Assembly: GCA_012295275.1 (NCBI GenBank)
Contig: CM022679.1
Span: 18,476,001 to 18,540,000, forward strand
DNA: 64,000 nt
Direction: 5' to 3'
DNA from: Chrysomallon squamiferum
Taxonomy: Eukaryota; Animalia; Mollusca
Shown: positions 3,921-63,600 of the stretch, piece by piece
How the letters are laid out: each line of letters opens with the position of its first letter
How positions within the stretch are numbered: position 1 is the stretch's first letter
Made by a program: the position numbers and the translations under genes
Notes under the pieces: model-generated
The model's input: only the letters and a program-made list of their open reading frames with translations
Databases searched by the model: none
Told to the model about the DNA's origin: nothing

Positions 3921-6900
3921 ATAATTATATTCATTTAGCTTCAGCGAATATCTTAAATTATACATTTACCAATAAAGAATATCAAACTGTTTTCGTTCGC
4001 TCCTCATATATATTATTAATGCACTAGAATTACCACTATGTAATCGAAATCGGCGCAAAATGCACTACAATTCACATTTCATATCTTAGCCACCAAGTTT
4101 ACCTAGGTAACGAAATATTAGTGAAAAGCACGATTCTGTGTAGCAGAACAAGTACCACGAGTTGCATTATTGTAAAGGGATCTATTTGATTGGCACCTTT
4201 TTGGTAGCCTTTAAGCGGAATGCGCTTAAGTTGTCGGTGTTATATTGATTATTAGCTCTGCAGAATTGATGGAAAACAAAAATATTTGTTAATCTCTTAA
4301 CTGAAATGGCTTTGATCACATATCATTTCTACTGATTTATTTTTACCAAATTTCTTCAATTTTTATTAGGACTTATTATTTCTTCCTTGTTAAAACAATT
4401 ATTATGTCTGTTGCTATGCTTTAATACTGTTGACATGTATATGCAGAATGCTGTATGAAAAACATACGTATCTTATATACCGTTTGAAAATAACCATGTC
4501 TGTTTAAAAATATAGTGTACATGCTAAACAAATGTATGCATATAAACGTACATATGTATATTATGTACTTATGAAAATAAACATGTATGTCATTGTACAA
4601 AAAGTGTACAAAAATAAATGTTTAATATTGTATGAAAATAAACGTATCTATTAGATTCTGACACCAAAACACATAACCTTTCAAAGTAAAATTGATAGAA
4701 TCATAATATAACTAATATCTGGTAATGTTTCTGGTTATTTTCAAGAGTCTGTGCACTGTCAACCACACCATCATAGCAATAACAACAATAACGGCGACAA
4801 CAATAATAATAATGATAAAGAGATTTAGAAGCATGCATTACATTTCAGTCAGTTGTATATAACTTGCAAACATAAATCTATTTGGATAAACTGTGGTTGC
4901 CAAACTTTGTGGAAGCATACAAAACCTCAAAGATTTTAATATCTCCTTTGGCATAAAAGCGAGTCATATTCTGATTTTTTTCTTGAATGTAAGGTTGTAT
5001 TCATTAAAATATTTAAAAAACAAGTCAGATTTCTTTGCCATCGACATTAAAGGGGTTCAGAAAAAATAATCTTAATAAATTATATTCAATCTGGCCCCAT
5101 TTATGGTTCAGGTTTAGACATTTTGTGTTTAAATATAAATTAATTAGATTCTTGTTATAGCAGCATATTGATCCATGGAAAGCAGGGTTACACAAACAGT
5201 ATTTGTTTCAAGTATTACACTGTGTTTTCATTGTATTTGCAATCTGAATTCTCCAGGTTTATTCGTACAAAATAAAAAACTCTAGCCAGAAACAACTGAA
5301 TATACAGAAATCCTGTAAGTTAATTCTTGGGTTACTAAAATCCTTATGTCTTTATGTCTATATGTGACAATCTGTCTCTCTGTCTGTATTTATGTGTTTA
5401 TCTGTGTATGCATGTGTTGAATGTATAGAAATATTCAGTGTTGTCGTTACTGTTGTTATTTTAAAATGCTTCTGAAGCATAATTAGAAACTACTACCCTG
5501 AGTTGATTAAATGGGGTGATTTTCTTTCGTTATCTAACCATTAGTAATTTCTTTACCGATAAAACTACGCCTTCTGTCATATGATGTTAAATTATAATCT
5601 ACATTGTGTTACAAATCCGCTATGTACCAGGATCAAAATAATTGACATTTTATTTAATGATTTGTTTCTTTTTAATATGGTGAAAAATGAAAATAATTGT
5701 TAGTGCTATTAATATATCTTTATTGATTAAATCCCATTTTAATTCTGTATAAAACTGTATATTCATAGGGATAGTTCCTAAGTAATATTCTCTACAGTGT
5801 GGGGTACACGGAACCAATAACTACTGTTTGTTGTTCCTTGTTGGTCGTTAAAAAATTATTTTCAGTTATATTTATTGTTCTGAATAATGATCTAACCATT
5901 AACAGACGATTAATGATTTTAATGCAGTGAAAGATATTTATTTTTTTTTTTTTGATTTTTTGTTCTACCAGCATTCTTTTAATATTTTTATTTTATATAA
6001 TTAATATTTTCTTTTTTATTTACTAGTAAAATTGCTATTGTCATCCATCACCATTACAGACATTATTACTGTTAAACTGATAATTTTGTTATACTTAAAA
6101 ACATAAGAAATGATAATATACATAATGATGCATTTATCGATCTGGCCTTTCTTTTCTGTTCCTAACCTTTTCTCTTTTGTTAGATGGATCTAACTTTTCC
6201 TGTCATAAGAGGTTTATCTAAACACAAGAATGCGATATCCTTTATATTTATGACACTGTCATAGCAATTCCCTATTAACAGATCAATGAGAATCATTGTC
6301 GTATTTTTCTTCTCTTTTTTTTTCGTATATTAAGCACGATAAAAACATGTATTACTGGCAAACATCCCAGTTCGGAATTATGAAAATCGATAAAGAGATA
6401 GAAAAAAAAAAGAAAAAAAAAAAGCACTGAATAGAATTTTGTAATACTGGACGAAGCACGCAAACACTTCACCGTCAACACGACAAAGCAGTGATCAACG
6501 ACAATGGTTATACCAAACAATGAAACAGAGTTTTATCAGAGATGACTTTTGTTTAAAACTCGTTAACTCAGAGGTGAGGCAGCAAATGATAGCTTTGCTA
6601 CACATTATATAATTATTGCTGTCATCATTAAAAAATCAGTATTGATCAGCAGTGCATCTCTGTATCAAAACTGCTTCGCTACACAATTTTATTGAATGTT
6701 TGCCGACGTTAATTTTCGTCTTAATAATAGTACGTATAGAGGTAAAAATTTGGTAGTATACTTTTACTTATAACACATGAATAATAATAAGAAGAATTAT
6801 GACAGTTTCATGCTGCAACAGAGGTTCTTGATAAGTACCTCCGTGGCATTAATGTAAATCACTGACTTAATAATTTGGGATGTTTCTGTTTCGGTCGGTT

Positions 6901-41792: not shown

Positions 41793-43529
41793 CATCAGTG
41801 TATTATTTAATTCATGAGAGAAACTGTGTATAACACATGCACATATACAAAATTAAAGCACAATATAATACATTACATTCATTATGGAAGTGGAATTTCC
41901 ATAGCATCCTGGTTCAATAACAATGACTTTTACTCCAAAACGCGTAACTTCTAAACGAAGAGAATCAGAAAATGCTTCAACACCAAATTTGGAAATAGCA
42001 TACGCTGAACGTCCAGGCACAGCAGCCAACCCACGCACACTAGATATATTCACAATTCGGCCTTAAAAAAAATAAATAAATAAATAAAAAAGCAACATTT
42101 TTACTGTTCCTGGCAGTGATCCATGATTACAGAAAAAAGATACCAATGTTAGACTCAGACACATATACCTTTGAATAAATAAATACAGTTAAGGTTGTAT
42201 AACCATTTAAAAGAAAAGTCACATCATATGAATTTTATGTACTTAAAAATACAAAAAACTGGTGTGAGTTTCACACTGATTGCAATTCCAAGTTAGGCTA
42301 TAATCAAAAATTATTTTTAGATATATTTCTATGATATTAAGCATTCATTTGAATATTTAGGTTTACATAATGATAAGAGTTAAAGTTATTAAGTAACTAA
42401 AAAAACATATAAGTAATTAGAATTAATAATTGAGCAAAAACTAATATAAATCCATCAAGTTAGTAATCTAATAAATTGCCAATTCTTATAACAAAATAAA
42501 TTTAATGTATTTTTTAATTTTTTTTACTAAAATCATAGATTAAAAACAAACCTTTAGATTTTTTGATGAGGGGTAAGAAAGTTTTTGTCATTCTTATGAG
42601 ACCAAACAGATTCACTTCACAAATGGACTTATATTCTTCCATTGTAGTAGATTCTGCATCCCCCATTGACAGAATTCCAGCATTGTTTATTAAAGCCCAT
42701 ATATCTGAAAAATAAATACCTAATAATTTTTAAAGATTCATTAACTTTGTTTAATGCATGGATTATTTTAAAATAAGTCTTCAGTTACAGGACTTCCAAA
42801 ACCAAATTTTTAAACTGATCAGTATTTTTGTGGTATTATCTGTCATGCCTCCCTTACAACAGATAATAACCCCAAAGTGTTCCTTTTTCCTTTCCTAGTT
42901 TTAATAATTATTAAATTTGCATTAACATTACACTAACATTACAACATCTATTATTATCTACCTACCTTCTTCTCTACAGTTTTGCTTAACATATTCCAAA
43001 CAACTCAGAACACTGGTTACAGAAGTGACATCAAGATTACAGGTGAAAACATTGGTTTCTGACTGAAGTTGTTTTGCTCCTTCACCACTTTCATAAAGAC
43101 AACAAGCAATGACTTTAAATCCACTGTAGTCAAGTTTTCTGGCTAAAGCATTGCCAAATCCTGAAGATAAAATGTAATGTTTTAATGAAACATCTCATCC
43201 TAAGGACATTGTTCAATTTAGGTTCAAGTGTTATAATTTTTATCAATAATAACATCAGATTAATTAATTTTTCTATTATTTCCTACCTTTTTTTTTTATG
43301 ATTAAAGAATTTGATACCTATCTTTAAATAGCTTACCTGAATCACAACCAGTTATAATTACAGTTCGATTTTCTGGTGATATTTTCTGTGTTTGCTTGAC
43401 AGCAAAGTGAAAAATCCAAATGCAGAGAACAATTAATAATGGCCACATCATCAAATGGAGTAACACGATATAAAATATGTAAAGTGTTAGCAGCACCATT
43501 AAACAGCCAGTAACATAACTGGGCAACAT
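41211..43529 (-). CDS. Membrane-anchored short-chain dehydrogenase/reductase, SDR9C type (BDH1/RDH/17b-HSD6-like), ~351 aa
   Basis: Exons 43529-43337, 43160-42966, 42704-42552, 42061-41877, 41704-41486, 41321-41211, phases consistent. [39 protein letters not shown] (YxxxK), IEPG. Confidence 0.93.
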
Positions 43530-46099: not shown

Positions 46100-46383
46100 G
46101 TAAGGAATAAGGCGTGTTCATTTTCATTACAGGAATTAAAATCCACAATTATCATCAACATCAAATTAATCTGTTACAATTCATACATATTAACACGCAG
46201 TAATATATCTATTAATGTAGGACATTTCTTATTTTCGGTTATATTTTATTAATCCTACTGTATTGTTAGTAAAATGATAGCAACTGGATAGGAATATTAT
46301 CAGTATAAATTAATATATCAAATAATATTTGAATGTATTCGTAGTTTTGTATCTGCAGGAGTAGTAATAATATTTTTTAGCAA

Positions 46384-48953
<2,570 letters not shown>

Positions 48954-50338: not shown

Positions 50339-52679
50339 TGGACATTTTTTTCTTTCTTTGTACTGTAATTAAGATCATCATTAAAATGGTACAAAGCTAT
50401 CAAACTCAAATTTCAATCAAAGGATTTTGGAAACCCCCCAAAACATAAACTAAAATTCATAGTTCTTTTCCACAAATATGCATGTGCCTCATGGCTTGTG
50501 ATATAAGATAGTTCCAGTACAAACCCTTGACCTATATATTCAAGATAACGTTTTTTGTATATACATCTCTCTTCATACCCAATACATTTACCAGTAACTA
50601 AAAATATTGATAATTTCATCGCTGCTAATTGTGTTTACTAAAAATTGATACATATTACAAAGGTAAAAAAAAAAAAAAAAAAAAAAATTTACATTCAGCA
50701 TTCATGAAAGAAATTATAATGGAAGGAAACAAATACAGTAAATATTTGAAAACATTACATAGGTAGAGGCAGACAGTTATAGTTAAGCCAATCACTAAGC
50801 AGTATGCAAAATGCATGTTTTTTTAAACCTATTTTAATTCTGCATACAAGCAATCTAACAACATGAATTGCTTGGAAATAAAGTACCAGCTGGACTGTCA
50901 TAGTTGAAGATAGTTGTGATCAACAAAAGACCGTGGATTCTCATAGGTAAAGTTGGATATCAGAGCATCTTTACATCCATTGGAAGGTTTATTGTGGCAG
51001 ATCCAGTAAATCCAGTCTTTGTTAATGATCTGCATGTATATGGAGGTATTGTAGCACAGCTTTGCCTCTGTTGAACTTTATAATCTCCATATTGGTTTAG
51101 AATTTAGGAATGATTTCAAGCCCCCTTTCTTTATAACTTTATAGTATATCAATATAAATTTGGAATGGCTCTAACCGAGTACAAAATCACAGAGAAGAAT
51201 TTGAGTTTTTGAAACTTCGTTTAGTTTTCCCATCAGAACAAACTAGTTTTTATTTATTTGAACAATGTCAAATCAAGTACAAATCAAATAACCTTATGAC
51301 TTTGGAGAATGTTATCTTGATTGCAATAATTCTGTGATGTTCTGAATAATATAATTTAAGAAAAAAAAAAAAAAAAAAAGAAGAAAATGACCATGTGATA
51401 ACGTGTTACTAAATTTAGCAAGGCATAACGTGTAACGTTAACGCACCTGCAATTCGTACAAGAGCTATTCTTATTTTATTCTTATTCATAACAGTCGAAA
51501 GAGCTAAAATGACCTCTAAAATAGTACCAAAATGTTTATGATTGGCCGATAATTATAAAAGTTGCGATCCAAAAAACGTGTCTAAATGTATGTAAAAAAG
51601 CTCTATCGCAAATTTGTATAGAAATAGAGCATACAAGTAATGCCCTGAAGTGGAAGTAAAATAAACATCCAGACTAACAGGATTATTTTGTTTAGGTGAC
51701 CTAATACGATAGGATAAAAATTTGTTTACAATCTTTACCGTCAAATCATGACTTTTTACAGAAGGTTGAAAATAGTTTCCGATCGATAGATTTTATTTAT
51801 ATTATTAAGTAACTGAAATGGTTTTATTGTGGAAAATTTAGAAAACGGACGAATAATAACACTCTTGAACACGGGCAGCCCCTAATGGCTACTATTTTGT
51901 ACCTACTTTGTTTTTAAAAAAGTGACATGGAGCCTCAAAACAACTGACATTGTATTGTACATGCACTAAACAAACCACCATACTAAAGTATTATCAAGGT
52001 TTCAAAAAAAAGTTTAATCTTTTCGTAAATTCATCATCTGGGTTTTGAAGCACCACATTTCTGCACTTATTTTCTCTAGAAACGTCTACTCAGATGAAAA
52101 TAAAAGTAGGACAATGTTGGGCAAAGTGCGAACAACCTCACGAAAGTGTTTCTGAAATGTCGGCCAGTTAGCACAGCGTGAAGATAGTTACCAACGTCAT
52201 ATCTCCAAAAGTACATCAGAATAATTTTTATTATTATTATTTTTTGTTCAGTTCGAATTCACAATTTCTATTTAACTAACAAATAAAAATAAAATAAATA
52301 CAAAAAATTATTAAAAATATAAAATAAAAACAAAAAGATAAAAATTTCAACACTTTGGAGTCAGTTTCCTACAATAAGAACTATTAGTTAAAAGAACACC
52401 CAAATTCCACCTTTTTCGTAAAAGCACTAACATGCCAAAAATTACTTTTTAAATTATTTATTAATTTTGTTTTTTAAGGACGTGTGAAGATACACAAGTG
52501 TTTTCAAGCATTGACACAAGTGATTAATCTTCAAAATCGCATGAAATTCAACTACTTTATTACACTCTTACGTGGTAGATGATAAATCGTCCATGTCGAC
52601 ATTATAAACTGCTACCACGGTTTAATTCCGTCAAAGGTGCTCATTACTAATAGAGAAAATTAATAAAAAAAGAAATATA

Positions 52680-53085
52680 ATGGCGGCATCGAATGCTACT
52701 GAAAATGAATTGAATATTTTACCAGGAATTTATGACGTTATTCGCAGGTCACATTTGACAAAAATGCAGAATATTTTTAATTGAATACAAACATTATTTA
52801 TTTCATTTCATTTCATTTTTAAATTTATTTTTATTTATTTCATTTTTAAAATTATTTTTATTTATTTTCAGCATTGAGAAGGATTCTCATGACATAAATC
52901 AGAAACTATCTGACCTACAGACACGGCTGCAGAAAGCAAAGGAATGTGTTGATAAATTACCAGGCATTCAACAAAGCAAAAATGAGCAGGTGAAGAGAAT
53001 CCAGATCCTCCGTAAACAGCTAACAATAAAAACAGAACTCCTCCAGAAACATAAGAATTTGTCCAAATTTGAAGTTGGGCAATAA
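52680..53085 (+). CDS. MED9: Mediator complex subunit 9, 93 aa
   Basis: Exons 52680-52747 and 52872-53085: MAASNATENELNILPGIYDVIRSIEKDSHDINQKLSDLQTRLQKAKECVDKLPGIQQSKNEQVKRIQILRKQLTIKTELLQKHKNLSKFEVGQ. Matches the Med9 pattern LP.I..II...EKD...LPGI..S..EQ......K.ELL. Absent from the ORF track. Confidence 0.9.
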
Positions 53086-53138
53086 CTTGATTTCATTTAC
53101 TTTTATTTTTAAGCGAAGTCATTTCAGAGGTTTCAGTC

Positions 53139-53666
53139 ATGAGTGAGGAAGGAAACGAAGTGCATCCTGTATTTCAAAAAGACCCAGAAGATTGGATGCA
53201 GTATGTGTACAAACAGGTTCAGGTTTTAACACGGGATGCAGTAGAACACATTGGCTGGGTTTATACGATTGACCCAGTATCAGAAAGTTTTGTTTTGGTT
53301 CAGTTTGTTGATGACCAGCCTCAACTTGACATACTGATAGGTCATGCCATTAACAAGGTTATTGTGATAGATGAAAACACTGAGGCACAAAAAGACAAGT
53401 TGAATCTCCTTTTCCGACCAGATATGTTTCCCACTATGTCTTCCGAAGACTTGAAGAAACGGCAGTTGCTGGTGAAGTTTTGGTTAGACAAGAATAGATT
53501 ACCAGTACAGGTTGGAGGGGTTGGTGATGAGTTACTAATGATTTCAGACGCTCTTGTAATTGAGCCACCTTACAGAGTGGAGAACTGTCGATGCACTAAT
53601 GAAATAATTTTGGGCAGAATTCAAGGATTGTTAAAAAGCATGCCTGAAAATTATGATCAGTGGTGA
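53139..53666 (+). CDS. GEMIN6: Gem-associated protein 6 (SMN complex, Sm-like fold plus AD domain), intronless, 175 aa
   Basis: P.DW..YVYKQV.V...GWVYTIDPVSESFVL, IGHAI..V, WLDKNRLPV, I.PPY..ENC..TNEIILGRIQGL are the Gemin6 signatures. AATAAA at 53931. Confidence 0.92.
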   Translation: MSEEGNEVHPVFQKDPEDWMQYVYKQVQVLTRDAVEHIGWVYTIDPVSESFVLVQFVDDQPQLDILIGHAINKVIVIDENTEAQKDKLNLLFRPDMFPTMSSEDLKKRQLLVKFWLDKNRLPVQVGGVGDELLMISDALVIEPPYRVENCRCTNEIILGRIQGLLKSMPENYDQW

Positions 53667-55482
53667 TAGTAGTATTTCCATGTATAATTAAAGCAGAAGA
53701 AAAATTATTCATTTATCTAAATATATCTTTAAGTTTTGATGTTGATTTGTATTAATTGACATAACTTTAATTGTCAGACATTTTGCTTTCTTTGTTCATT
53801 TGGGTATTGCATTAATAATGAATTTAAATATATATAACAATTTTAATGAATAACACATTTTTGTCCTTTTGTAATGGATCTTGTCAAAGTTGTTTTCCCA
53901 AAGATATTTATAAAGACTGAATTTCAAACAAATAAAATGAACAATAGATTTACTATCAGAAAATTTTAATATTTCAAAAATTGTTTAAAAACCATCTGCC
54001 TTTGATCTAAAGTTTAAAAACAAATGGCCTAAATACATTTTGTGTATTTCCAAATTATGACCTAATTTATTTGTAGTAACTGATTTTTTCTAATAATTAC
54101 AGGGTAAAGCATTTCATGTTGAAAATGGAATAAAATGCCTCAGACCAGTGGAAATCAATAAGCTAGCCTGAGAACTTTATTTATATTTTATGTACACATA
54201 TTCAAATTTAGTTTAATTCAAAATTTTTATAATAATTTTATGCTTTGAACGTAATCGGTACACATGACCTAAGTCAAAAAAGGTAACTATTTCAGAAAAG
54301 AGTCACACAACCTGTAATTATAAAAACTATTAAAGAATAAGATTTGAATAAAGCATGACAACACAAGTTTTACCTTTTATCTTGTTATGTAAAAAAATTT
54401 ATCCAGGGATATTTTTATATTTCTATGAGCAATATAAAATAAAATAATGAAACTATTTAGTTCTATCTTAGTACTGTACTTCTGCAGTTCAGCCATGCAA
54501 ATTACCTGAATTTAATTGCTTATGTTACTTTTATTATTGTTATATTACAAATAGAATTTTAATCTGTTAAAACAGAATTTCTGAAAATCTAAAATCGAAT
54601 TGTATTTTTAAAATGTAAAAATTAATCATAAATTTACAAAATATGTAACAGGAGATTGTTATTTCTTGTCTGATTTTTCTCAGTTTTATATCAAAATATT
54701 ACAAGAATGATTTGAAACACTGCACAAAAATAATAATCAGACTAGCTTGGTTTGGTATTTTTTTTAAAATCACATTTAAATTTAATAATTATTTTATAGT
54801 TTCATGTATTTTAAAATAGTATAATGTTTTAAAGAAATAATATAGTTCTTTTTGACTAAAAGAATCAAACTAATACAAATGTTACATTTTATACTCACAG
54901 CATTTAACAACTAATCAGTAAGTTGAAAAAATAGTAATTCAGTTTCAGTTTATTCTAGATTATATATAAAATGGTAATAAAATATTTTATACAATATGAA
55001 TATCTGAACAATACCATTTCTGCATAGAAGGCATGTGAAAGTATAATGTAATTAAAATTTAATTTAATTTTTTTTTTTTTAAATTGCCTTACATAATTTA
55101 ATAATGTTGATTTATCTCTGGAATGGCATTTCAAATATATCAAAATTTTATTTTAAATTGGTTTAGAAAATTATAATTTTTTCTAAAAAAGAAAATAATC
55201 CCCCCCACACACACACACACACATACATACACAGTTTATGTTAAAGGTTTGCCTAACTTTGAAGGTTCAAAAATATTTGATTGTATACCAGTACACCATT
55301 AGTTTAAAAATAGCAGGGATATTTTGTGTGTGTGTGTGAAAAAATCCTGGTAATTATATAAAAAGGTAATAGTGTTAAAAACGAGAAAATGTTGTACCAT
55401 TAACTGATTAAATACAATATAATATAATAAAGAAGTAGTAATTTCATAATGTCAGGGTCATTTAATTTTAATATTTATATCT

Positions 55483-58139
55483 TCAAATATAATTTTCACT
55501 GACGTTAGGTATTACATCTTCAGGATCTATCTGTTCAAAGCTGTCCTCTGATGAAGAACCATCTCCAAGGTACTCATCAGTGTCATGATTCTGATTACGA
55601 TGGTCAAGGTCCAGGAACTGTCGTATTTTATCTTCTACTTGGTAATGTTCACTAAATAAACACATTAAAACACTGGTAGATACAAAGAAGAAAGGAAAAC
55701 ATTTATAGACAAACCATATCAAAGATGTGAAACATAATCACTCTTGTTACAGCAAGGAGGATTTTGAGGAATTCATTTTTTTTGTTTGGTAAATGGAGTT
55801 TATATTGAAAATTTCTCTGTTTTCAGTTTTAACAGTTCTACATTATTCGTTATGCTGAATTTCAGAGTTCCTTTATTTTAAAACATAGGAAAACAATATA
55901 CATCAAAAGACTGAAAAAAGAACAATCATAACAAAAAGAAACAAAACCAGCTAATGGATTGGAATGGATTTAAAGGCTCTCACCTACTGCTTCCAAATGT
56001 AAATGACTGTGTCACACCAATGGACATTCCTGTGGCAAATAAAAGCACAACCTGGTGACCGTTTCCAAAGAATCGAACACTCTCCTCTTCTACTCTAACT
56101 CCAACAATGTCATCCAAGTTCGTTACCACTGAATAAGTAACAAAGTACTGAATACTCTGTACAATTACATGTCTAACATATCTAAAGTGTTTACTAGTTC
56201 TCAGTACAAATAACTTTGATAAAAATAAATAATAAAATAACAAAATATCAGTCAAATTCCTGTACTAAAATATCTTAGGATAATTAAATCTTTAGCACAC
56301 ACATGTACATGTTTATATAGTAAACTTTAAGTCAAACTGATAAAGTTATCATTATATTGTATCAGTGAATAGTAAAACAAAAATCTTTATACATGTACTT
56401 CCAAGTTATTATTTTATTGTCAACATTAATAATAAAATATTACAATAGGAAAATATTGAGTATTTTCATTTTAACCCTTTACAATATTGTTTTGTGGGTT
56501 TATTATGTGAATTTTTTTTTCTGAAAACACTTGAAGAAACTTTACAGAAAATCTATTCAGTTTGTACAGAATGACATCATAATTATGGAATTAGATAATT
56601 TTAAATTGTATTTTTTTGTTATACTTAGTTATAATTAAAATAAGACAGTGAAAAAAAAAAAAAAAACATGACCCCCCCAAACATTATTTGGAGATATGTA
56701 GACTATACTTTTTCTTTATGTTGCCAAAGGTAGTCATCAAAGCAGTTTCTCACCTGTGTGTTTTTTAACAAGTGGATGTAGAAACTTTTGTAGCAGACTG
56801 CAGCTGCTAATTCTTGTTTCTCCACACTGTTTGTCAAACTCACAAATCTTAAAATAAAACACACGACTCGGTTATATATTTTTTAAGTGAAACAATAATT
56901 TGTTTGGTTTATTTTCTTAGTTATTGATTAACCCTGAAAAGATTTATATTTGTAACATAAAGATAATTCATTTCATTTATATACTCAAGACAGGTCAAGA
57001 ACTGGTTTTTAATAATTTTAACTTTAATTTATTAAAAATAAATATTTAAAAAAAAAAAAAAAAATAAGAAAATAAAAAAATATTTTAAAAGTAGAAATTA
57101 TAAAAACTGAAAGTAGAAAAAAGAAAACCAAAGAAAGTTTACAAGAATAAAGGATATAGTAACGGTATTAACAACTGGGTATTTCATAAAAATAATAGGA
57201 ATTTTATCTACAAAACACTGAAAATGATTTGCAGAATTATTTTCATTTAGCAATTCTGTTATATACATATACACAGCAGTTGCAGTTTCCAGATTAATCA
57301 GAAATGTGTCTGCATTATTTAAATAGTTTTCGAATTTATAAATGAAAATAATTTAACATTTAAAATGAATAAATACTTTATTTTTAATAATGCCTTACCT
57401 CCCAGTCATCCATGCAGTAGATTCCTATGTATATGGCACCAGCCATATATATCAATTTCCATATCAAATAATCTGCAATGTATGTTTATATATTTAGTTT
57501 CCACATAAAACCCCAAAGTTGTTTGTTTTGTTGTTGTTCTGGTTTTATTTATTATGTTTGCTTTTTATGATATAACTATCTGGAAAAGGTTACTATGATT
57601 ATAACTTATTAAAAAGAATGATTTAATTCATAAATATTCAAAGATAAATCATACCTGAACCATAATATCCTGCTCCAAAACCAAAGGCCACTGCTCCTAA
57701 AAGAATGTACCACAGAATGTTATTTAATATATTTTTGGCAACACACACATACACAAAAATCTATTGTGTAATATATGAATGTAAATTATTCAGTTGTGAA
57801 AAATAAAGAAAATATAATGATGATAATTATAATATTAATATCATCTAATTACTGTACTAATGGATCAACATTTAAGTCTGTTTCCTATCCCAGCCATTTT
57901 AAATATTTTCTTAATTTTCAACATAGCGAATATTATTATGGATACAAATAATGATATGATTCAGAATTTCTTGATATACACTTTGTAGCCATTTTTCTGT
58001 TATGCTGTAATGATGGTTTGTCATTTGGAAATTAAGAATCTCAACAATAAATATATTTAAGAATCAAAAACTTCTTTTCTCTTATCCTTTTTATAGATCA
58101 AAAGTTATGAAAATTTAATAATGCTCTGGGACTTTATAT

Positions 58140-58173
<34 letters not shown>

Positions 58174-58965
58174 CACACACACAGATAGAGATATATATAT
58201 ATAGATAGCTCTGTTTTGATTGAGGCCACTTGCAGATGGTCTTTCCAAGCAGAAGTCATCAATGAAAAGTCTTGGTCTGATATGCATTGCTGCACACAAG
58301 CAGAAATGATATAAACATTCACCATCTTCATATTTGTAAACAAGGCCTCAGATTTACTGAACCATTTGAAATAATATTCTTCACAGTTACTGTCTGTCAG
58401 CTCAAGAGTACTGATATTTGCCTGAACCAAACTCTTAATATAATTCATCATTATATTGCATATTGAAGGTTACTGGTCCTGTCTGCATCACAGAATTCTC
58501 CGAAATGTAGTAAGGCTACATTTTTACAACTGTTTTCAGAGAAATAATATCCAAATATAATATTCATGGAAAATAATGGTTATTACAGCATTTCAGTTCC
58601 CATTGTTTTTAGTTTATCAAAGATAATGCCCTGCTTGAGTGTACTGGGTGAAGGAAAGAATGCTCAAATCTTCTAGTTTCCCAATTTATAGCATTTTAAC
58701 AACTCATTTAAGTTTCTAACTTAATAATTAACTGTTTATACTTAGCTAGCTTGCCTAAAATGTTTCCAACTGCCCTAATAACAATGGTAATAGTACTAGG
58801 AGGATGGTATTGGTAATAGAAGTTGTTGTTATTATAACAGGAAATGACAGTGATGATACCATATTTTAAAAACATACCAACAAAAAGACCCCAAGACCAA
58901 ATGTTTGGCTCCCTTGAAAAACACAGTCTCTTTGGAGTGTCTTCTTTAACTGTTATATAGCCCAT
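55483..58965 (-). CDS. CYBC1: Cytochrome b-245 chaperone 1 (EROS/C17orf62), 203 aa
   Basis: Exons 58965-58878, 57696-57655, 57472-57399, 56847-56754, 56128-55984, 55651-55483, phases consistent. REPNIWSWGLFVG, YYGSDYLIWKLIY, MDDWE, FDK, VEEESVRFFGNGHQVVLLFATG, VTQS. Confidence 0.92.
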
Positions 58966-60651: not shown

Positions 60652-63600
60652 ATGACCAATATTGAATTACGGTAAGTTTAATTGGTTATTTTGTTCCTCA
60701 CTGGTAAATGAAAAAGAAATGAATAGCTGTATTTAAAAAAAAAAAAAAACAACAACAAACAATTGTGGTTATGATCATGATCTCAGTATTTCATTACAGT
60801 ACATTACCAAGTAGTTATTTATTTTATTGTTGTTGATTTTGTTGGTGTTGTTGTTGATGGTTGTTGTTTTGTATTTATACTGATATTATAAACATCAAAT
60901 ATTTTGAATATTTTAGAGTGGTGCATCTAGACCTAAAGGGGGCAGCACCTAAAGTTGAATATTATCAGCAGGTATCTGCTTAAATATTTTTATTTAATTA
61001 TCTACTAATGTCTTTGAAACTGTATGATTATATTTACTGTTTTATATTTTATCATAAACAAAATATCTTATTCTGTTTCTGTTGCATATTATAAAGACTT
61101 TTCCACTTAAAAAGTCTTGTTTATCTTCATTAATAAAATAATATTATTATTATCATTATTGTTAATAATGTAAATGTTATTATTTGTTTGTTCCAAAAAG
61201 CAGATATACTGAATAATTGTTTAAATATTAATTATTATCATATTTTTATTATTATTATTTTTTTTTTGACATTGCTGAATGTTTATCTTAATTAGGTTGA
61301 TCAAAAAAAAAAAAAATCCCTATTTGTCTTTGTCACTTTAATTTAGCTGTTTCCACTGCTAAATCAGTGGGGCTGCACAGGCTTACTCATAGAGTATGAA
61401 GATATGTTTCCTTATACTACACCACTCGAAGATCTAGCAGCCCCATATGCATACAGGTACTTTTGATGTTTTTACTTCTTGGTGTTTCTAGTTTCACTAA
61501 TTTGATATCCTGAGCTTACCTTTGGTTTTTGGTTTACATATTTGAAGTTTTTGGTATATATATTTATTTTTTTCTTTCAAATATGATAAAACCTATAATT
61601 AATTAACATGTAAGTTGTCATGATCAATGAATCAATAAATATGTTTTAGGTAATGATAAAATACTGAAATATAAATTCCTATTTTGTAGCAGAATGTTAA
61701 TTTAGTAGTAATTAGAATAATGAAAATATTCTGAAATTTGAAATTGAATATTTGTGTGTTACATTTCCAAAAGTAGATCGAAATTTTTAATAGTGATTTT
61801 GTGATTTTTATTGTTATTATTGTGATTTCAGTAGAGAAGCTATTCTGGAAATACTACAGCTTGCTGCAAAAAGCAATCTGTCAGTCATACCACTTGTACA
61901 GACATTTGGTCATTTGGAGGTTTGCAGTTAATATATTTTTAAAAAGTTTTATTATTGTAATTATACAACTACTTTTTTCATCTGTCAAAAAGTTATTTAA
62001 TTTTATGTACTTTAGAATTATCTTAAATTAGTAATGTCTTGTGCGCATATAATGATTACAACTGCTTTCTTACATTCAGAAATAATTAACCTCCCCCCAA
62101 CAAAAAAGAAAACAAACAAAAAAAAAATATGCGGATATAAACATCTTTCTTCCATGAACTGAAATTTTTAATTATTTTTTTGTTTAGACTATGTTTTCTT
62201 ATTATGATGTTTTTAAAATGTATTTACTCTATATTTTCCATTTTTTTTTGTTCTCAGTTTTTATTGAAACATGAGAAATTTTCTCAACTGAGGGAGTTAT
62301 CCAGATATCCAATGGCTCTTTGTCCATCACATCCAGGTAGTATTCAGGTTTTTTAATATGGTGCATTTGAGTAAATTGGATACTGAATTATGACACACAA
62401 AGAACATTTACTAGTTTGGATCTAGCATATTTTTAGATTTAATATTTCCAGCAGAGTAATTTTTCTTTTTTCTTTTTGTCAAAAAGAAGATGCAGAATTG
62501 AAGATTTTCATTGTTTGCGTTTAATACTGTTTTTTTAAAATTGTCTTTATTAAGTGAAGAATCCATCAAGTGGGTTATGTGACAGTGGGCTAATCATTGT
62601 TGTATGTGTTTTGAAACCTCAACTTTTTGTCTTCAAATATAGAGGTACCTACTTAGGCAGAGTTATGTCTGAAGTGTTTTATATAGTTAGAGAGATAAAT
62701 GGTATTTAATAATGGCTTTGCACAGAAAAATAATATAATATGTCAAAAAATATTAACAAATTGATGTTTCAGACAGTTTTAGAACAGTATGTACTATGAT
62801 AGACCAAGTTATGCAATTACATCCTGGCATTGAACACTTCCATATAGGCTGTGATGAGGTGAGCATTATGACTAGTATCTTAAGAAAGGTTTTGATAAAA
62901 CAACAGATATTTAAAACAAAATGAATTTGAAGTTGTAATTATTTTCTATTCATTGCATAAACCAGAGTTTACAAATAAAAGTTTCAGAAACTTCTAATTT
63001 TTAGGTAATAAAATAACTGTTTTAGAGATTTGTTTTAATAGTCAGCTGTTACCCTTAAATAAAAACTTGCTGAATAGAACATTTTAAAATCTGGTACTCT
63101 TAAGAAAATGTCCAGTCTTCACTTATTTTAATGTTTATTTAATTTCAAGGTTTATCATATTGGCCACTGTCCAGCTTGCAAGTCTAGAATGGTCAGTGGT
63201 AGCCATGGAATCCATCAAATGTTTTTCTCACATGTCACAGCTGTAGCCAAACATATTCGCACTATGCATCCTGCTGTGATACCACTGATCTGGGATGATA
63301 TGATGAGAAGTATAGAGCTGCCTGTTCTCATTGGTATATAGTAGAATTTCTTCATTATGACCATTTCAACTAATTTTAATAAAGCATTCTTAATGGATAT
63401 AATTATATTATATATAATTTATTACATATTTATTACTGTACAGATTTTTTTCCATTTTATTATCTAACCAGTGATCTCTTTTAAATCATAATGTATATAA
63501 ATTAGGTTTCTTTTTATGGTAAAAATTAGTTTGTTCTTTGATGAGCAACAGCTTAATTTTAAATTAACAATGCCCCTTCATTACAATAAACCTGGATATA

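Follow-up and report, generated by a model that had tools for sequence, protein, structure and literature searches.

Introduction

Dicistronic mRNAs are known in animals, yet few have been shown to persist across phyla. Crosby et al. (2015) list 159 dicistronic pairs in Drosophila (PMC4528330, FlyBase 6.04). File S1 of that paper annotates Drosophila MED9 exclusively in di- or polycistronic form, as a 5′ cistron separated by 28 nt from its 3′ partner CG42518. In green-algal bicistrons, leaky scanning is marked by a weak start context of the first ORF and by few ATGs ahead of the second (Duenas et al., PMC11291117). In the well-characterised examples covered by a review, reinitiation after a long ORF is viral or retrotransposon-borne and needs RNA elements (PMC10275272). 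Human bicistronic mRNAs include MIURF-MIEF1, PYURF-PIGY as well as ASDURF-ASNSD1, and the main text of the paper that lists them mentions neither MED9 nor GEMIN (PMC13303939). Our search of mostly non-subscription literature found no publication on a MED9-GEMIN6 pair, which the supplements of PMC3514665 may list; the papers retrieved under both gene names are, by their listings, unrelated expression or network studies, and no paper listed in the other searches for the pair placed MED9 or GEMIN6 in a dicistronic context. The pair described here bears on how ribosomes get to an ORF that is preceded by one of 90 codons with a strong start.

Results

Organisation of the MED9-GEMIN6 locus

The window, that is, the whole 64-kb stretch of Chrysomallon squamiferum DNA analysed here, has the composition of AT-rich animal DNA, and an Rfam search of it returned no match. 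Additional features lie outside the locus of interest. A multi-exon gene on the forward strand (46381-48950), which we take to encode ribosomal protein S2, has a first exon that by itself gives no Pfam match and one acceptor that is apparently AAG. A short-chain dehydrogenase exon (PF00106) lies on the reverse strand at 41856-42062, and coding-like frames without a Pfam match at E 0.001 lie at 55486-55737, 50901-51077 and 58137-58469 on the reverse strand and at 63132-63338 on the forward strand.

MED9 is encoded on the forward strand by two coding exons. Exon 1 (coding part, 52680..52747) starts with ATG 52680, ends in phase 2 and is 77% identical to the N-terminus of Gigantopelta aegis MED9, and exon 2 (52872..53085), which ends with the stop TAA at 53083-53085, carries PF07544 and is 88% identical to the same protein, a named orthologue. 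The 93-aa product matches PF07544 with an E of 9e-15 and 54.9 bits, against a Pfam cut-off of 26.9. The intron between them (52748..52871, forward strand, 124 nt, phase 2) has a donor, GTCACA, that matches the consensus poorly; its acceptor position is matched in seven of seven related genomic loci checked. When this intron is kept in, MED9 is reduced to a 34-codon ORF. An AATAAA lies within the MED9 coding sequence on the same strand (53025..53030); cleavage here would truncate MED9 ahead of its stop, so a complete MED9 mRNA is impossible from that signal. A donor-like CAG/GTGAAG is also seen in exon 2 at 52989-52990, roughly where one related locus (L038) carries an additional intron.

The GEMIN6 ORF (53139..53666, forward strand) encodes 175 aa in one exon without intron. 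It matches PF06372 (60.1 bits) and PF20417 (75.8 bits), both above cut-off, and the LSM12 family is not among its Pfam matches. Its named matches are GEMIN6, the others being unnamed models that carry the same two domains, and the nearest named GEMIN6 is that of the gastropod G. aegis (84% identity), with which the tree pairs it with full support. The predicted 3′ UTR (53667..53936, forward strand) contains ATTAAA at 53687 and, as the likely poly(A) signal, AATAAA at 53931.

Re-derived coordinates agree with the initial annotation in placing the MED9 stop 53 nt ahead of the GEMIN6 ATG on the same strand. The intercistronic spacer (53086..53138, forward strand, 53 nt) is U-rich and holds neither an ATG nor an AATAAA. 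The locus thus consists of two non-overlapping, same-strand ORFs, both intact and conserved, with no poly(A) signal in the spacer between them, as expected of a dicistronic unit.

RNA contigs bridge the two ORFs

The stretch is present in five sequencing runs, four of which are RNA from one study; the libraries are metatranscriptomes and may include DNA or pre-mRNA. Contigs of four runs (X1, X2, X3 and X5) were mapped on 52875-53970, and X4 was excluded as a possible duplicate of X3. MED9 exon 2, for which this mapping gives RNA contig coverage from 52875, the spacer and GEMIN6 are bridged by a single contig in X2 (52875-53903, zero differences) and again in X3 (52875-53805), two runs of the same study, and the mapping shows neither joints nor loose ends. 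These contigs are assemblies in a mapped region that begins in exon 2, and single molecules, strand and start sites are not readable from them. No contig of X1 or X5 covers 52875-53970, although these runs contain 0.84 and 0.81 of the words. The word shares agree with the mapped contigs (0.73 expected and 0.74 seen for X2, 0.69 and 0.68 for X3) and, for X1 (0.84), with a spliced contig, but are too coarse for use.

Two side observations concern X3. Over 931 nt its bridging contig disagrees with the window only at the neighbouring positions 53099-53100, in the pyrimidine tract of the spacer, and this difference abolishes a TTTAC branch-like motif 14 nt upstream of a candidate acceptor. A further X3 contig of 861 nt begins at 53901 and continues past the AATAAA at 53931; the 3′ UTR may extend further, a convergent neighbour may be transcribed here, or the contig may derive from DNA.

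The tight MED9-GEMIN6 arrangement recurs across animals

In G. aegis, GEMIN6 (XP_041362767) and MED9 (XP_041362769) have near-consecutive accessions on an 81.6-Mb contig, and in Patella caerulea the pair carries the consecutive tags SNE40_005874 and SNE40_005875; in each of these species the two genes are assigned to contigs of equal length. Additionally, the protein records P0037 and P0092 both lie on a 5,048,976-nt contig. Among 49 metagenome loci fetched with a GEMIN6 alignment, nine have MED9 upstream of GEMIN6 on the same strand, and Pfam confirmed this in three of three tested.

The nine loci differ in the form of their spacers. In L001 it measures 56 nt, and MED9 precedes GEMIN6 without its conserved intron, so that L001 is probably a transcript. 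The sister loci L002 and L003 have spacers of 31 and 32 nt, L007 has one of 56 nt with a U-rich tract lacking an AG, and in L038 GEMIN6 (4971-5756), a protein of 261 aa whose Sm-like domain carries long insertions, lies 40 nt behind MED9. In L006, whose GEMIN6 is identical to that of Paralvinella palmiformis, the spacer is -1 nt; the annotated start is the second ATG, 11 nt from the stop, so the stop-start overlap may be incidental. L049, on a long tree branch, comes from a compact genome, has a 2-nt spacer and keeps the same phase-2 MED9 intron. The remaining two spacers are of 255 nt (L004) and 718 nt (L040), and the latter shrinks to 40 nt if an inferred intron, with its donor 16 nt after the MED9 stop and its acceptor 24 nt before the GEMIN6 ATG, is removed. 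A(A/T)TAAA is absent from all eight short spacers, that of the window included.

The other 40 loci comprise two without the first GEMIN6 exon, 29 that form one clade, and nine insect-like ones. In the 29-locus clade no MED9 is seen within up to 5 kb, and the GEMIN6 ATG is preceded at 15-94 nt by an acceptor-like site; in the insect-like loci no MED9 is found in the 156-4115 nt upstream of GEMIN6. Two of the latter, L042 and L043, have in common, at about 160 nt ahead of the GEMIN6 ATG, an upstream ORF of 6 codons, some 45 nt from the start. Babylonia and Priapulus carry the two genes on separate contigs, and human MED9 and GEMIN6 lie on different chromosomes. In a tree of GEMIN6 with 54 rows, where 18 of 50 inner branches are open, the only loci placed beside named rows are L006, L039 and L042 (with insects) and L037 (with Glandiceps).

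Taken together, these comparisons indicate that the MED9-GEMIN6 pair is old, occurring in limpets, annelids and other animals. The loci without MED9 and the separate contigs in Babylonia and Priapulus imply that it is not universal and has been lost several times. Of the features that the initial annotation named for comparison, adjacency is conserved (in Gigantopelta, Patella and the nine loci), and acceptor and phase are not, as the frames vary. Because tight spacing recurs across animals, a shared mRNA is likely. The shared transcription unit proposed earlier is accordingly upheld as likely by three observations, namely the contigs across both ORFs, the L001 contig and the deep conservation of a tiny spacer. 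Specifically, we think it probable that the unit has a single promoter, located upstream of MED9, and a single poly(A) site, located behind GEMIN6.

Probable translation of GEMIN6 behind MED9

We favour, at somewhat better than even odds, a single dicistronic unit whose spliced mRNA yields two separate proteins, with GEMIN6 probably produced by reinitiation. Transcription would start at one promoter upstream of MED9, run through both ORFs and end at a poly(A) site after GEMIN6. Ribosomes would translate MED9, terminate at its stop and reinitiate at the GEMIN6 ATG shortly downstream. As a second possible route, transcripts that keep the weak MED9 intron would have nothing but short ORFs, of 2-34 codons, before GEMIN6.

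Leaky scanning had been judged unlikely in view of the strong context of the MED9 ATG and the several out-of-frame ATGs that follow it, and this assessment holds. The ATG at 52680 has A at -3 and G at +4, A occupies -3 in all three MED9 starts seen, and six out-of-frame ATGs were counted between the MED9 and GEMIN6 starts in the spliced mRNA. Across nine loci, out-of-frame ATGs in MED9 show no depletion (20 observed versus 17.7 expected). Thus both marks of leaky scanning, a weak context of ORF1 and depletion of ATGs before ORF2, are absent.

Around the second start, the short spacers contain 0 or 1 ATG. In 9 of 10 loci the GEMIN6 start has a purine at -3, and L006, the exception, has one there at its second ATG. 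The short gap, the scarcity of ATGs and the purine at -3 fit reinitiation after the MED9 stop best. If the mRNA is dicistronic, we put the chance that termination-reinitiation is the main route to GEMIN6 at roughly one half. UGGGA, which is TURBS motif 1, is found within 110 nt of the MED9 stop in none of 10 loci.

Other routes were also considered. No IRES-like structure is indicated at the MED9-GEMIN6 junction, where folding compared with shuffles is nothing unusual (z 0.61). Stop-codon readthrough is disfavoured, as all nine spacers that are short, or short once spliced, put the two ORFs out of frame (probability 0.026 by chance, calculated for loci that are not independent). For a trans-spliced operon with a spliced leader at the spacer, no loose end is seen in the contigs, and an acceptor would not fit into the spacers of L006 and L049.

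Intron retention as a possible main source of GEMIN6

GEMIN6 might instead come mainly from transcripts that retain the MED9 intron, or are spliced in a way that breaks MED9, under one promoter, with ribosomes passing the short upstream ORFs by reinitiation. The weak donor GTCACA contrasts with those of the neighbouring ribosomal-protein gene (GTAATT, GTATGT, GTATGA and GTAAAA), and the retained form has ORFs of 2-34 codons at its upstream ATGs; yet these ATGs number eight, which is many, and the weak donor is not conserved, that of L049 being GTATGT. The RNA contigs bear on this point. Those of X2 and X3 both extend exactly 6 letters past 52875, to 52869, where the spliced sequence parts from the unspliced one, the final three bases of exon 1 and of the intron being identical. 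This suggests a fork between spliced and retained-intron forms, both present in the runs; the fork is read from contig extent, and DNA or pre-mRNA would look identical. In FlyBase, a splice variant of MED9-CG42518 breaks the 5′ CDS, and retained introns do likewise at Tim10 and CG7071. Against this route, no MED9 exon 1 was detected close to exon 2 in L002, L003, L004, L006, L038 and L040, so the introns there appear longer. Overall, we consider intron retention unlikely to be the main source of GEMIN6.

Overlapping monocistronic genes as a possible alternative

A different arrangement that would produce identical contigs is one of overlapping monocistronic genes, in which GEMIN6 has a start site of its own within the MED9 intron, within exon 2 or within the spacer, and the GEMIN6 region serves as MED9 3′ UTR. 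The spacer contains three initiator-like TCAKTY hexamers, at 53093, 53119 and 53133, over a background of 2.3 per kb, which makes a separate GEMIN6 start site near the spacer possible. The earlier reading that the spacer lacks an AATAAA stands; its claim that there is no room for a promoter may not hold. In Drosophila, moreover, monocistronic forms of 3′ members usually arise from a downstream promoter (PMC4528330), and in the insect-like loci GEMIN6 occurs without MED9. However, this arrangement does not account for spacers that stay between -1 and 56 nt in distant lineages, and compact loci would need a promoter within the MED9 CDS or within a 68-124-nt intron. We therefore regard it as quite unlikely, and retain the dicistronic unit with reinitiation as the preferred reading.

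The candidate in-frame acceptor in the spacer

The initial annotation had further proposed that an alternative acceptor in the spacer joins MED9 exon 1 to GEMIN6 in frame and so switches output between the two proteins. Candidate acceptors lie on the forward strand at 53113 (in frame) and at 53127 and 53136 (both out of frame). In silico splicing of 52747 to 53114 does give the open fusion frame described, of 206 aa; joining to 53128 or 53137 gives 28 and 25 aa. The pyrimidine tract before 53113, noticed earlier, also exceeds background, because an AG as pyrimidine-rich as that of the spacer occurs in only 54 of 2412 53-nt window tiles (top 2%), by a threshold chosen after the site had been seen, and one that is also in frame and open in 12 of 2412. 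The tract is hence a real feature. An AAG acceptor is apparently used in the ribosomal-protein gene of the window as well.

A common splice from 52747 to 53114 would fork the assembly near 53112. At depth 13-17, neither the X2 nor the X3 contig, of a kind that drops rare forms, has a joint, loose end or break at 53112-53114, so that in the sampled RNA the fusion is probably no more than a minor isoform. Among related loci, the frame of the spacer differs, the sisters L002 and L003 being one base apart. L006 (-1 nt) and L049 (2 nt) have no space for an acceptor before GEMIN6, skipping to the spacer-intron acceptor of L040 runs into a stop, and in the clade with an acceptor before GEMIN6 (L008-L036) the site is in frame and open in 1 of 23 distinct loci. 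In-frame acceptor-like AGs occur 4 nt ahead of the ATG in L001 and at 52 nt in L013. At the protein level, 79 GEMIN6 proteins contain no MED9 match (best E 0.14), 150 MED9 proteins contain no GEMIN6 match (best E 0.2), a weak search of 175 candidates found no longer MED9 proteins, and G. aegis GEMIN6 is a 175-aa one-member cluster. Conserved acceptor and phase and fused proteins in relatives, as would be expected of an alternative-acceptor fusion, were thus not found, and across the loci compared the predicted fusion appears not to be conserved. As a regular source of GEMIN6, a fusion through the 52747 donor and the 53113 acceptor is very unlikely, despite its in-frame, pyrimidine-rich site and the similar sites in L001 and L013, since it left no trace in the contigs of the two runs or in the proteins searched and since L006, L049, L040, the L008-L036 clade and L007, which has no AG, speak against it. 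The proposed switch is thus unsupported, both as the chief route to GEMIN6 and as a conserved one. Since rare forms are lost from contigs, C. squamiferum may still make a minor fusion isoform.

One MED9 record, P0094, has a C-terminal tail (residues 108-172) without a Pfam family. It may be a gene model fusing MED9 with another downstream partner, the tail being presumably NCBP2AS2-like.

Discussion

We regard MED9-GEMIN6 as a probable and unusually old dicistronic pair of animals. It would connect a Mediator subunit with a subunit of the SMN complex at the mRNA level. It also offers natural variants, with spacers from -1 to 56 nt, a spacer intron present or absent, and lineages in which the pair is split. 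Annotation that allows one ORF per transcript may miss either MED9 or GEMIN6.

Poor splicing could, by way of MED9 intron retention, lead to more GEMIN6, a spliceosome-assembly factor; splicing feedback through this locus is speculation. A broader scenario, in which MED9 has been a lead cistron since early animals, is followed by element-free cellular reinitiation, survived a swap of partner in arthropods and also uses intron retention, is tentative and, as a whole, rather unlikely.

The closest described locus is Drosophila MED9-CG42518, which resembles MED9-GEMIN6 in having MED9 first, a 28-nt gap and a partner listed as unrelated, and where a splice variant that disrupts the 5′ CDS yields a monocistronic 3′ member (PMC4528330). 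It differs in that the partner here is GEMIN6, and in that the fly locus is based on curated gene models and the snail locus on contigs. CG42518 is probably a gene other than GEMIN6. The idea that it is the missing fly Gemin6 is unsupported: the insect-like GEMIN6 loci have no MED9 upstream, and the searched supplements of two SMN proteomics papers do not contain CG42518. Matera et al. concluded that Gemin6 was lost in Drosophila, with no mention of MED9 in the passages covered, and judged CG14164 (Hezron), once proposed as Gemin6, to be Lsm12-like (PMC6385987). CG14164 takes the 5′ position in a different dicistronic pair (PMC4528330 File S1, row 270).

Like green-algal bicistrons (PMC11291117), MED9-GEMIN6 probably combines two unrelated ORFs, separated by a short spacer, in a single nuclear mRNA, but it has neither the weak ORF1 context nor the ATG depletion. 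As in reinitiation in caliciviruses and influenza B (PMC10275272), a long ORF1 is followed by an out-of-frame second start near the stop, as in the L006 overlap and the 2-nt spacer of L049; unlike the viral cases, these are cellular genes, UGGGA is found in 0 of 10 loci and most spacers measure 31-56 nt. In its general design, with the ORF of a small conserved protein placed before that of an unrelated protein, MED9-GEMIN6 is like the human MIURF-MIEF1, PYURF-PIGY as well as ASDURF-ASNSD1 mRNAs (PMC13303939).
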